Part shown: piece after piece, positions 35,292 to 45,651 of the stretch
Position numbering within the stretch: the stretch's first letter is position 1
Layout: the number at the start of each line of letters is the position of its first letter
Source: Planctomycetota bacterium
Lineage (GTDB): Bacteria > Planctomycetota > JACOTG01 > JAJDCM01
NCBI GenBank assembly: GCA_029260825.1
Contig: JAJDCM010000382.1
Location: 1,221 to 65,220, forward strand
Direction of reading: 5' to 3'
Length of the DNA: 64,000 bases
Notes under the pieces: generated by a model
The model's database searches: none
The model's input: only the letters and a program-made list of their open reading frames with translations
What the model was told of the DNA's origin: nothing
Program-made: the position numbers and the translations under genes

Positions 35292-35377
35292 GCCCGGGTG
35301 GCGGAATTGGCAGACGCGCTAGATTGAGGGTCTAGTGGCCTTTATTGGCTGTGGGGGTTCAAATCCCCCCCCGGGCA
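35292..35377 (+). tRNA. tRNA-Leu (anticodon GAG), class II with long variable arm; CCA not encoded
   Basis: Acceptor GCCCGGG/CCCGGGC with discriminator A. Anticodon stem CTAGA/TCTAG with loop TTGAGGG. Long variable arm. T-arm GGGGG-TTCAAAT-CCCCC. Confidence 0.85.
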
Positions 35378-42074: not shown

Positions 42075-43310
42075 GTGGAACAGCCGGGCGGGGAGCTCAG
42101 AAACCCTCTTGCCAGGCAGTACCTCACCCGCGACATTCCCCGGGTTCATGGAGTCTTGAAAGTCGTCCCAGAAGATTTCCTGGTTGATGAGGTCCCCCAG
42201 TATCCTCCCTCAGGAAAGGGAGACCTGCTCTTTCTTCGCATCTCAAAACGGGGTCTTTCCACGTTCCAGGCCATCCGCCTTCTGGCACGCACGCTCGACA
42301 TCCCCGAGAGGCATGTGGGCTATGCCGGATTGAAGGACGCTAGAGCGGTTACCAGCCAGATGGTCTCGGTGCCTGTTGCTACTCGCCCTCGGGTGGAGAC
42401 CATGAGGATTCCGGGAATCCGCGTGCTCTCCATCGATCGCCACCACCAAAAGCTCAAGATCGGGCACCTCAAAGGCAATCGCTTTCGAATCCGGGTCCGT
42501 CGGACGCGTGCCGATGAGCGAGAACGCTTCTTTCAGGTTCTCGAGGTTTTGAAGTCAGAGGGGGTGCCCAATTATTTTGGCCGACAGAGATTCGGTTTTC
42601 GCGCCAATTCTCACATCCTGGGCCGAGCGATCCTCACGTATGACTATCCAACCTTCCTCGAAAACTTCCTGGGAAAGGCCCATCGGCGAGAGGACGAGAC
42701 ATGCAAGGAAGCCCGAGGACACTACGATCAGGGAGATTACCCCGCGGCCATCAATGCGTTTCTCCCTCGGTTTACCAACGAAGCCAAAGCCATCACCATG
42801 CTGGCAAAAACCGGAGATCCGCGACTGGCGTACAACGCGATCCCCCGAAAAACTCGCCAGTTCTTCGTCTCTGCCTATCAGTCGTATCTCTTCAACTGCT
42901 ATCTCGATCGCCGGGTGAACCACCTCAATCGATTGGAGACCGGCGACCTCATCATCCGGCATTCTCGGGGTGATCTCTTTGCTGTACTCGACCCTCCTGT
43001 CTGGGTGAAAGCGATGCGCAACTTCGAGGTCAGTGCCACCGGCCCGATCTTCGGGGGATACATGCGATTTCCCCGGGGACCGAGGAGGGTTTTTGAGGAG
43101 GAGCTACTTGCCAGTGAATCCCTCACACCGGGGAGTTTTCTGGCCATTGACGGGTTTATCGAGCGGGGAGCAAGACGTCCCCTTCGTTTTCCTGTCCATG
43201 AATTGGAAGTCTGGTTCGGGGAAAACGAAGCGTTCCTTTCTTTCTACCTGCCAAAAGGATGCTACGCCACCTCCGTCTTTGACGAGTTATTCAAGGAGGG
43301 GGATGTTTAG
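42075..43310 (+). CDS. truD: tRNA pseudouridine(13) synthase
   Basis: GYAGLKDARAVTSQ and NYFGRQRFG motifs. Confidence 0.85.
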   Translation: MEQPGGELRNPLARQYLTRDIPRVHGVLKVVPEDFLVDEVPQYPPSGKGDLLFLRISKRGLSTFQAIRLLARTLDIPERHVGYAGLKDARAVTSQMVSVPVATRPRVETMRIPGIRVLSIDRHHQKLKIGHLKGNRFRIRVRRTRADERERFFQVLEVLKSEGVPNYFGRQRFGFRANSHILGRAILTYDYPTFLENFLGKAHRREDETCKEARGHYDQGDYPAAINAFLPRFTNEAKAITMLAKTGDPRLAYNAIPRKTRQFFVSAYQSYLFNCYLDRRVNHLNRLETGDLIIRHSRGDLFAVLDPPVWVKAMRNFEVSATGPIFGGYMRFPRGPRRVFEEELLASESLTPGSFLAIDGFIERGARRPLRFPVHELEVWFGENEAFLSFYLPKGCYATSVFDELFKEGDV

Positions 43311-43413
43311 TCCCGGCGACCTCCGAAACCAGGCCTCAAACGGACCGGTTTTTGCTTCAGGAAGCACCATTGGCGACTGGATCATTCCAAACCCCGTGAG
43401 AGATAAACCTTCC

Positions 43414-43770
43414 ATGATCTGCCACGCAGAGCGACGAAAGTTCCCGAGAATGGGCCGAGAGTACCCGGTCATCGTGCGCTGGGACACCCGAGGAAAAGGC
43501 TCCCACACCGCAGCACGAACCGCAAATGTAGGAGCAGGGGGGATCCTCCTCATCGAGGAATCGTCGAAGGATGTCCACGTGGGGGAGCCCGTCACCCTGG
43601 TCATTGAAGTTCCTGCGCCCGGGGGATCAAGACATCAAAAGCTCCATCTCCGGGGTTCGGGTAGAGTCGTGCGCCAAAACGGAAGCGATGCGCCATCGGG
43701 AGCGGTTCGGGTGGTCGCCATCATGTTCGACCGCCCCTTATCCCTCGAGAATCCCGTAACCGTCTCGTAG
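43414..43770 (+). CDS. PilZ-domain (c-di-GMP-binding) protein
   Basis: RRKFPR (RxxxR) and NVGAGGILL (D/NxSxxG-like) motifs. ATG at 43414 has an RBS. The track ORF start at 43033 overlaps truD. Confidence 0.6.
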   Translation: MICHAERRKFPRMGREYPVIVRWDTRGKGSHTAARTANVGAGGILLIEESSKDVHVGEPVTLVIEVPAPGGSRHQKLHLRGSGRVVRQNGSDAPSGAVRVVAIMFDRPLSLENPVTVS

Positions 43771-43778
43771 CCCGCGGT

Positions 43779-43945
43779 CTAGCAGCCCGTTGACAAAGTC
43801 AGATTTCGCCGAGGACAGCCCTTTCAGCCCAGCTCTGCGTCGCCGAAAAGCACAAGAATCAACCAATTCGAGTCCGTTCCGGCTTCTTGATCTGAACCGA
43901 AATGACTCGCCCTCGTCAAAAAGCACTTTATCAACGGGCTGCTAG
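43779..43945. repeat. 21-bp near-perfect inverted repeats (CTAGCAGCCCGTTGAcAAAGT / ACTTTaTCAACGGGCTGCTAG) flanking a 125-bp spacer in a convergent intergenic region
   Basis: Left arm 43779-43799 and right arm 43925-43945 match 20 of 21. The arms abut or overlap the stop codons of the pilZ gene and the small minus-strand ORF. Each arm carries an inward-facing TTGACA or TTGATA hexamer. Confidence 0.6.
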
Positions 43946-44235
43946 GTCAGATCCTCCGGAATCTCCTCTCGGTCGTCCGACTCGGATGGAGAGGCGCCGT
44001 TCTCCACCTTGCTGTACCCAAGACTCTTCAAGATGCTCAGTACCTCTCGCCAGGTGGGAAAAGGACGTACATTCTTGCGCTTGAAGTCGTCAATCGCCTT
44101 GAGGAAAGCGAGCTCTTCAGCTGTCATATCTCCGGTAATGGTTGGAGATGCAGCAAGTGACTTCTTGTTTTTTCGGACCTTTTTGGTCACTTTGCGCTTC
44201 GAAGGCTTTTCTGGGGTCGGACTGGATTCAAGCAT
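43942..44235 (-). CDS. Small basic hypothetical protein (Lys-rich N-terminus, acidic C-tail)
   Basis: 97-aa ORF with plausible composition (AEELAFLKAIDDFKRKNVRPFPTWREVLSILKSLGY). No recognisable family. Confidence 0.4.
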   Translation of the reverse strand: MLESSPTPEKPSKRKVTKKVRKNKKSLAASPTITGDMTAEELAFLKAIDDFKRKNVRPFPTWREVLSILKSLGYSKVENGASPSESDDREEIPEDLT

Positions 44236-44313
44236 CCACCAAGCTCCTGATCACTGGGGGAAAGGCTGTTTGGCTCGTTGATTCGGTGTCCTGTGCAGGA
44301 CACGCCACAAGGC

Positions 44314-45651
44314 TTATCGGCCGTCCTGGGGCGCCGGCTTGAGGACGGTATGACCACGCCGAGCCCGAGGAAGCTCGCTCGGGATCCCGAACTGCTCCTG
44401 ACAGAGATCGGGAGCCCTCGAAACGAGCTGTTTCTGTTCCGGATCGACGAAGACATAGAACTTCCAGAGCTGCCGATGCTTCTCCTTCAAGATCTCGATT
44501 TCCGGGTTTCTCAGGGTGGCGAGGGAGACGAGATCAGCCGCGTCGGTACGAACGAGAACGTCCGCTTCCTTGAGCGCCATTCCCACCGCCGGGCAATAGA
44601 TGATCACGGACTCGGGGGGAACGGCAAGTTTTCGGGCGATCCGTCGCTCGATCTTCTCTCGTTCTCCTCCTTCATTCAGATGATAACGACTGACCAGATC
44701 GGCTTGACGATCCGGCCCGATCGCCGGGCTAAGAAGATAGGCAGCCTTATAAAGACGCCGTGCATCCAGGCGCTGCATCAAGGTGCGAATACCTCTTACC
44801 CGTGAGAAACGGGTGCGGAGGACATAAAGAAGTGACTCGTCCTTCAAGCCGTAGAGATCCGCTTTCTTCAGCCCCTTCGTGAGGCCCAGCTCGACCGCTT
44901 TGGAGATCATGGCTCCGGAGGCGATCTTGGTGTGATGATAGTAGACCCTCTCGGAGAGCGTGTATCGGAGGCGGAGGAGGTTGATGATCTCGGTGAGTGC
45001 ATCGTGGCGGAAGAGTCCGTTCTTGATGAGCTCGAAAAAGAGAGTGCCTTTCTCCTGTCGAAAATATTGAAACACCCGGTCATCGTAGTGCTGAGAGAGG
45101 CCACAGAAGTAAGCATCGCGACGCAGGTAATCAAGAAGATCGGCGCAAACCGTATCTCGCACCACTTGAATGGCAAATTTCGGTACTTCTCCGGCGCCGG
45201 CTTTTCCCGTGAGACAAGACGTCACGGTTTTTTTCAATCCGCTCTTCTTCAGGACCCCTCCGAGCTCCTTGCTCTCGAGAAAATGCGTCCATCGATCTTT
45301 GTCGTCATCGTGCCTTGGAAAAACGCGCCGCTCATCCTCCAGAGTGTGACCGTAGGGAAGATGTCCAACGTCGTGAAGAAGGGCGGCGACCCCGATCATC
45401 TCCCGATGCTCGGGTTGCACCACGATCCCTGCATCTTCGATGCAATCAAGGATGCGTCCCGCCACATGGAGAGTCCCCAGGCTGTGTTCGAATCGGGTGT
45501 GCTGAGCGCCAGGATAGACGAGGTACGCCGTTCCCAGCTGGCGAATCCCGCGCAGCCTCTGCATCTGAGGAGTGTCCAGGCACTTCTTTTGAAGGGGGGT
45601 GAGCTGGATGTCCCCATGGACCGGGTCCCGAACAATCTTTGCCATGGTCAT
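44314..45651 (-). CDS. HD-domain phosphohydrolase (dGTPase/SAMHD1-like dNTP triphosphohydrolase family)
   Basis: IVRDPVHGDIQLT...RLRGIRQLG...RFEHSLGT...LLHDVGHLPYGH...YLRRDAYFCG. Confidence 0.75.
   Translation of the reverse strand: MTMAKIVRDPVHGDIQLTPLQKKCLDTPQMQRLRGIRQLGTAYLVYPGAQHTRFEHSLGTLHVAGRILDCIEDAGIVVQPEHREMIGVAALLHDVGHLPYGHTLEDERRVFPRHDDDKDRWTHFLESKELGGVLKKSGLKKTVTSCLTGKAGAGEVPKFAIQVVRDTVCADLLDYLRRDAYFCGLSQHYDDRVFQYFRQEKGTLFFELIKNGLFRHDALTEIINLLRLRYTLSERVYYHHTKIASGAMISKAVELGLTKGLKKADLYGLKDESLLYVLRTRFSRVRGIRTLMQRLDARRLYKAAYLLSPAIGPDRQADLVSRYHLNEGGEREKIERRIARKLAVPPESVIIYCPAVGMALKEADVLVRTDAADLVSLATLRNPEIEILKEKHRQLWKFYVFVDPEQKQLVSRAPDLCQEQFGIPSELPRARRGHTVLKPAPQDGR

Follow-up and report, generated by a model that had tools for sequence, protein, structure and literature searches.

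A 159-bp element between convergent pilZ and small basic-protein genes is very probably a MITE with the ends of IS5/IS1182-superfamily insertion sequences

Two 21-bp inverted repeats separated by 125 nt occupy the gap between a pilZ gene and the convergent gene for a small basic protein, and the question raised by this locus is whether they arose in place, as a bidirectional terminator, a small-RNA locus or a pair of regulator-binding sites, or arrived with a transposon. A preliminary description had offered all four readings; the MITE-like insertion was upheld, whereas the other three failed as accounts of the origin. We conclude that the feature is very probably a 159-bp non-autonomous, non-coding MITE with the ends of an insertion sequence (IS) of the IS5/IS1182 superfamily. 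Base-by-base comparison of the left arm, CTAGCAGCCCGTTGACAAAGT (positions 43779-43799, plus strand), with the reverse complement of 43925-43945 gave 20 of 21 identities, the sole mismatch being C43794 opposite A43930. Within the window, i.e., the whole 64-kb stretch of DNA that was analyzed, the two arms were the only matches at ≤3 mismatches, and none of 100 dinucleotide-preserving shuffles yielded an arm match. The repeats, their 20/21 match and the 125-bp spacer were thus borne out by window search, shuffles and direct comparison. An automated repeat listing, both local and for the whole window, did not include this 21-nt, 95% inverted repeat; direct search and comparison show it.

The PilZ-domain protein (Pfam PF07238, E = 2e-7) is encoded on the plus strand at 43303-43770, with the ATG at 43303 as its presumed start, and 8 nt separate its TAG stop (43768-43770) from the left CTAG. 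The convergent gene, an ORF on the minus strand at 43942-44235 supported by syntenic orthologues, encodes a conserved small basic protein of 97 aa with no Pfam domain; its stop reads CTA on the plus strand at 43942-43944. The arms had been described as containing or abutting the stop codons of both genes, and this was correct to the extent that the small-gene stop is inside the right arm, whereas the pilZ stop abuts the left arm at a distance of 8 nt without overlapping it. The element therefore sits directly 3' of the small gene, in its putative 3'UTR.

The element core, 43783-43941, comprises 159 bp of the form CAG...CTG with 17-nt terminal inverted repeats CAGCCCGTTGAYAAAGT, to which two 4-bp CTAG copies are added. 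The left copy of the target-site duplication (43779-43782) is identical to the CTAG at the other end. It is followed by the left terminal inverted repeat, CAGCCCGTTGACAAAGT (43783-43799, plus strand), which matches the right repeat at 16 of 17 positions and is the same sequence that bounds two ISs (L013 and L020) and 14 short elements in metagenome-assembled genomes (MAGs). The 125-nt body (43800-43924, assigned to the minus strand) is non-coding, and in it the homology to a 168-bp MITE family continues past the repeats. The right terminal inverted repeat, located by window search and direct comparison, extends over 43925-43941 and reads CAGCCCGTTGATAAAGT on the minus strand; in the 168-bp family, the T variant of the repeat is more frequent than the other. 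The right duplication copy, CTAG at 43942-43945, holds the TAG stop of the small gene (minus strand, 43944-43942). The only ORF inside the element is a 51-aa stop-to-stop frame that ends in a repeat; no transposase similarity was found in the element or elsewhere in the 64-kb window, and no second copy of the element was found in the window. The TTGACA/TTGATA hexamers reported in the arms are present and point inward, but the promoter that they might signify was not recovered, as no sigma-70-like promoter was found in 43300-44500; the inward TTGAYA hexamers are part of a conserved transposon end and give no sign of a local promoter.

The tips of the MITEs are ambiguous by themselves, owing to the palindromic nature of CTAG and to single-base changes in one tip of many copies. 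That the outer CTAG might belong to the repeat was ruled out by full-length ISs on plasmids, which are flanked by perfect 4-bp direct repeats: TGTA/TGTA on Solidesulfovibrio magneticus pDMC1 (L043), GTAG/GTAG on a Rhodovastum atsumiense plasmid (L044), TTTG/TTTG on a Methylocystis heyeri plasmid (L045) and TTAG/TTAG on Novosphingobium sp. P6W pP6W2 (L046). The two full-length elements in MAGs (L013 and L020) have CTAG/CTAG flanks, and two short copies also have direct repeats (L026, TTAG/TTAG; L030, CTGG/CTGG). Because the plasmid ISs, L026 and L030 all show 4-bp repeats, we placed the boundaries of the core at 43783 and 43941 and took the outer CTAGs as a 4-bp duplication. The target-site duplications that the preliminary description had proposed to look for were accordingly found, as CTAG/CTAG at the window element and as 4-bp repeats on its relatives.

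The target CTAG consists of the stop codon of the small gene and one further base, so the stop is the original target sequence, and the right arm "contains" a stop codon because the insertion hit, and duplicated, this stop-bearing CTAG. The reconstructed empty site would be ...TAG CCCGCGGT CTAG GTCAGATCC..., and an empty-site allele would read ...GCCCGCGGTCTAGGTCAGATCC.... ORFs with coding-type GC1/GC2/GC3 patterns likewise end on the tip TAG in eight other copies (L004, L010, L012, L017, L018, L019, L020 and L021). Long ORFs ending in the tips of Acidobacteriota copies (L002, L003 and L006) resembled antisense shadow frames in their GC1/GC2/GC3 pattern and were not counted. In a Thermoguttaceae MAG (L009, 13-182), a 146-bp MITE lies at the exact center of a perfect 28-bp palindrome, gtcatggtttgc CTAG gcaaaccatgac. 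Some IS1182-family members are said to target palindromic sequences (PMC5678879), with which this site agrees.

Two elements of 1518 bp (L020) and 1486 bp (L013) are bounded by the same ends as the window element. Each has one ORF, of 472 and 468 aa, respectively, with DUF772 and DDE_Tnp_1 domains (PF05598 at E = 1e-19; PF01609 and PF13751 also match), and the ORFs terminate as ...LSTGC* inside the right repeat. The two transposases are 54% identical, and the ends of the elements are nearly the same. The best NCBIfam model for these parent transposases was IS1182 (E = 1e-47), at 162 bits and so below its curated cut-off of 270, and the IS5_4 model gave 93 bits against a cut-off of 140. Because the scores fall below the NCBIfam cut-offs for both IS1182 and IS5, the parent ISs appear to form a related but formally unplaced subgroup, nearest to IS1182/IS5. 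Full-length relatives on finished plasmids have transposases of ∼50% identity and the same type of end; the 17-nt repeats of the window element are identical or nearly identical to the ends of these plasmid ISs and of L013 and L020. Cultured carriers of a transposase of this group include Novosphingobium sp. P6W, Methylocystis heyeri and Sphingobium indicum UT26S. The 17-nt ends have stayed almost invariant over at least seven phyla despite transposase divergence to ∼50% identity. Multicopper/copper oxidase coding sequences are annotated on both flanks of the Methylocystis heyeri element (L045; NZ_CP046053.1, 20120-22179), and this full-length IS may interrupt a copper oxidase gene.

An exact scan for CTAGCAGCCCGTTGAYAAAGT was made with one genome per species, using a pattern that demanded CTAG and the T/C arm. 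The 21-mer arm was detected at 24 loci in 15 MAGs, which represent seven phyla going by record titles; by our own rough estimate, ∼2 arm matches would be expected by chance. The carriers, again by title, were Acidobacteriota, Latescibacterota, Rhodothermaceae, several Alphaproteobacteria and other Pseudomonadota, together with Planctomycetota, Hydrogenedentota and Verrucomicrobiota. At 14 of the 24 loci a partner arm lay 125-270 nt away, defining short two-armed elements of 146-290 bp. One Latescibacterota chromosome (OZ242318.1) holds six 168-bp copies, all at different sites, and OZ244852.1 holds three copies of another type. The remaining single arms were at contig ends or beside a partial transposase (L014), as expected for repeated ISs in MAG assemblies. 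A two-arm pattern with the tips left free, applied to JGI metagenomes, recovered seven more elements of ∼166-180 bp; L029 is the same insertion as L012 and L034 the same as L033, which leaves five independent ones. Plasmid and phage collections gave no match to MITE DNA. The IMG/VR scan yielded one 126-bp two-armed element with a TTAG/TTAG duplication (L026, 281-406, in IMGVR_UViG_3300039412_000802) on a contig classed as viral; such a contig might carry the element from host to host, unless it is a cellular fragment misclassified as viral. One insertion with identical flanks was present as 200 bp in an NCBI Latescibacterota MAG (L012, 5493-5692) and as 180 bp in JGI data (L029, 3945-4124), an internal 20-nt length polymorphism in the hairpin. 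One carrier (L015, bin80 from Aplysina aerophoba) is a sponge symbiont (PMC5649159). An association of the element with sponge symbionts in general is not claimed, as L015 was the only carrier verified as such and the names of other MAGs suggest sludge or soil.

The minus strand of the window element aligns with the 168-bp family well past the repeats. When an nhmmer profile was built from eight family members without the window element, the latter was matched end to end (66.5 bits, E = 9.6e-20), and on the plus strand the family profile matched at the two arms only. The body is ∼70% identical to that of its nearest family members.

Orthologous loci were used to ask whether the element is ancestral to the junction. 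The small basic protein has only one relative in a collection of 5.8 billion proteins, and the contig of this relative (L001, with L038 as a second copy of its type) is syntenic: it encodes MtnA, an HD protein, the small protein, a convergent PilZ protein and TruD, with 38 nt between the two stop codons. Further lineages were reached via homologues of the neighboring HD protein. One (L039/L040) has the same gene order with 6 nt between the stops, and in another (L041) the gene order is identical and the stops are 15 nt apart. The element and its arms were thus absent in 3/3 syntenic lineages that keep the small gene, where the gaps are 6-38 nt; the orthologues behind this result have HD proteins of 57-64% identity, and none is from a near-identical strain. 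Because no orthologous locus has room for the element, we regard it as an insertion in the window's lineage. The preliminary description had held that poor conservation of the arms at orthologous loci, together with a lack of other copies and of a transcript, would count against the feature; the arms are indeed missing there, which we read as insertion, and other copies do exist in other genomes.

Some further observations concern these loci. The small basic protein gene (window, 43942-44235, minus strand; L001, 10001-10273; L039, 4910-5206; L041, 2746-3117) always has an HD/HD_assoc_2 gene on one side and a convergent PilZ-like gene on the other, and the C-terminal motif of this orphan protein is roughly EDxLxFLKAxDDYKRKxxRPFPSxxExLxILxxLGY. 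Exact-protein look-ups for close strains returned no contig across the junction; the small protein had no identical record, and the MtnA look-up gave one 3.5-kb Logan contig that ends short of the junction. Proteins from many MAGs of both Acidobacteriota and Planctomycetota are ∼75% identical to the LepA of the host. The HD protein of the closest relative is 72% identical, and the contigs of this relative end 38 nt past the HD gene. Its two independent Logan contigs (L036, 6309-6346; L037, 2220-2257) end at the same base, possibly because the expected start of the small gene coincides with a repeat or with a break in coverage.

The entire 167 nt form an imperfect palindrome that, as minus-strand RNA, is predicted to fold into a nearly continuous rod of ∼66 pairs. 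Folding of the 167 nt as RNA gave -91.9 kcal/mol for the minus strand versus -58.7 kcal/mol for the plus strand, and a slightly longer minus-strand stretch had z = -7.4. The RNA folding suggested in the preliminary description thus showed that the whole element can adopt a ∼66-bp hairpin with the minus strand favored. The minus strand has nine G-U pairs and no C-A 1 × 1 mismatch, and the difference in stability arises because these nine G-U pairs become C-A mismatches on the plus strand. Folding as single-stranded DNA gave -43.9 kcal/mol for the minus strand versus -31.5 kcal/mol for the plus strand. Among nine diverged family members, double, pair-preserving changes occurred in 19 of the 55 consensus pairs. 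The family consensus folded at -72.4 kcal/mol with 55 pairs and its complement at -41.1 kcal/mol with 41 pairs; G-U and C-A cells numbered 38 and 7, respectively, and 21 pair columns included G-U and six included C-A. In the window and in five Latescibacterota copies (L010, L017, L018, L019 and L021), a gene of the same orientation has its stop in the tip and leads into the favored strand. The L004 orientation is opposite, and L012 has genes on both sides. This orientation count is biased and serves as a lead only, because the scan pattern demanded CTAG and that arm and so brought ascertainment bias, for which we discounted the apparent preference. Such strand asymmetry is not predicted by a double-strand DDE transposon and has no obvious use for one. 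It might stem from selection on the RNA in 3'UTRs, from a transcription-linked C-to-T bias or from inheritance of a master copy.

These properties bear on how the element came to be at this junction. An origin by host evolution, in which the small protein would bind the inverted repeats as paired operators, or the repeats would belong to a small-RNA gene or form the long stem of a bidirectional terminator, could appeal to the position between convergent genes, the very stable hairpin and the -35-like hexamers in the arms; we consider it extremely improbable, as the arms are missing at every orthologous locus that keeps the small protein and are transposon ends in unrelated phyla, and as the element has no promoter-like site, no terminator and no Rfam match other than a chance hit to a miRNA model. 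In particular, neither strand has a U tract after the stem (the sequence is GTCAGATCC on the plus strand and ACCGCGGGC on the minus strand), and a scan reported no terminator at the element, which speaks against the suggested bidirectional terminator. The proposed small-RNA locus lacked both a promoter and an Rfam match: against Rfam 15, which includes 6S RNA, the element had no match at the gathering threshold, and at E ≤ 10 it gave only a chance hit of 14 bits to a miRNA model. 6S RNA and other known structured RNAs were ruled out on this basis. The idea of paired sites for a regulator, possibly the small basic protein itself, was dropped because the protein is conserved in 3/3 orthologous lineages without the arms. 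A second origin to be weighed is a full-length IS that inserted at this junction and whose transposase gene was subsequently removed by an internal deletion; the remnant would then never have moved as a MITE. The identity of the ends to full-length IS ends and the single copy in the window would fit such a relic, but the 125-nt body shares homology with a family of 168-bp MITEs, equal in length, that occupy many unrelated sites in other genomes; an independent deletion would not recreate that family, and nothing in the body resembles the transposase or the subterminal sequence of L020 or L013. The full-length family match and the lack of similarity to the interiors of L020 and L013 indicate that the window element is a diverged member of the MITE family, as judged by alignment, rather than a locally decayed IS, and the relic is a very improbable alternative.

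A different kind of alternative accepts arrival by transposition and adds that the MITE was then kept for a strand-specific RNA hairpin that serves the small gene's mRNA, either by stabilizing its 3' end, by terminating transcription between the convergent genes without a U tract or by offering a site to RNase III. The minus strand is the mRNA sense of the small gene and is the strand with the nine G-U pairs and the lower folding energy; the compensatory changes, the consensus energies and the 38:7 ratio of G-U to C-A point the same way for the family, as does the placement of the favored strand after co-oriented genes in the window and the five Latescibacterota copies. No U tract follows the stem, however, the asymmetry may come from a master copy or from transcription-linked C-to-T bias, and the orientation count has the bias and exceptions given above. 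Hairpin-forming MITEs are common without any proven function, and we regard domestication at this locus as unlikely. Its extension to the whole family, according to which the elements favor TAG stops through CTAG and are selected for a strand-specific RNA hairpin of ∼65 bp that becomes the 3' end of the upstream transcript, is a speculation that we think quite unlikely to be correct. If true, it would define a mobile, cross-phylum module for 3'UTR stabilization or termination in bacteria without U-tract terminators at such sites.

The properties of the window element are those of a MITE: it is short and non-coding, shares its terminal inverted repeats with ISs, is flanked by a 4-bp duplication and is present at one orthologous site and absent from the others. 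The multi-copy nature applies to the family (OZ242318.1 and OZ244852.1), with one copy in the 64-kb window. Matching full-length ISs, multi-copy relatives, the target-site duplication and the empty orthologous sites thus agree on a MITE insertion, and the steps by which it occurred can be sketched. A transposase supplied in trans would have bound both repeats and excised or copied the element, cutting at CAG...CTG. The element would then have been joined into a 4-bp staggered cut at a CTAG, as the family suggests, that lay 8 nt beyond the pilZ stop, and gap repair would have duplicated the CTAG. The duplication of the target left both genes with their frames and stops, and the junction would have grown from a reconstructed ∼12 bp (the 8-nt spacer plus CTAG) to 175 bp. 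The hairpin, which is very stable and more so in the mRNA of the small gene, now probably lies in the path of both convergent transcripts, where it could attract RNase III or hinder read-through or 3' exonucleases. We infer that mobilization took place in trans, and likewise when and from where the element came and what effect, if any, it has today. For annotation, the feature is very probably a transposon scar, neither a regulatory site nor a small-RNA gene. Should the strand-biased hairpin and the association with stop codons hold, the family would provide a natural case of mobile hairpins reshaping the mRNA 3' ends of convergent genes.

Correia elements of Neisseria and ERIC/IRU elements of enterobacteria are intergenic, 100-200 bp long and imperfect palindromes over their full length. 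They are co-transcribed with neighboring genes and can form long hairpins in the RNA, with consequences for mRNA stability or processing that in some cases depend on orientation. Correia elements target TA, and Correia and ERIC/IRU elements are each confined to one genus or family. The window MITE differs from them in sequence, target and presumed parent transposase, and its ends occur in at least seven phyla. A closer parallel is MITEPsy1/ISPsy2 of Pseudomonas syringae pv. phaseolicola, in which a MITE that is likewise short and non-coding has ∼18-nt repeats in common with an IS5-type IS and generates 4-nt duplications on insertion into CTAG or YTAA targets (PMC3189936). The MITEPsy1 repeat, GGAAGGTCTGAAAAAGCC, is unrelated to that of the window MITE, and MITEPsy1 is 100 nt long versus 159; its spread is confined to P. 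syringae pathovars. Experiments with a trap plasmid captured MITEPsy1; the window element was identified from sequence. The parent ISs resemble the IS1182 family, e.g., IS1272, in their single ORF, length of ∼1.45-1.5 kb and DUF772 plus DDE domains, and IS1182 was their best-scoring curated model. Palindrome targeting by the IS1182 family also has a counterpart, as CTAG is itself a palindrome and the L009 copy lies in one of 28 bp. IS1272 replaces stem-loops and makes no duplication (PMC5678879), whereas the window group generates clean 4-bp duplications, as does the IS5 group. No description of this repeat sequence was found in the literature searched; the MITE and its IS group are apparently undescribed so far, and the kind of element, an IS5/IS1182-type MITE, is well known. 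Elsewhere in the window, a tRNA gene (35292-35377, plus strand) was the only Rfam match at the gathering threshold.
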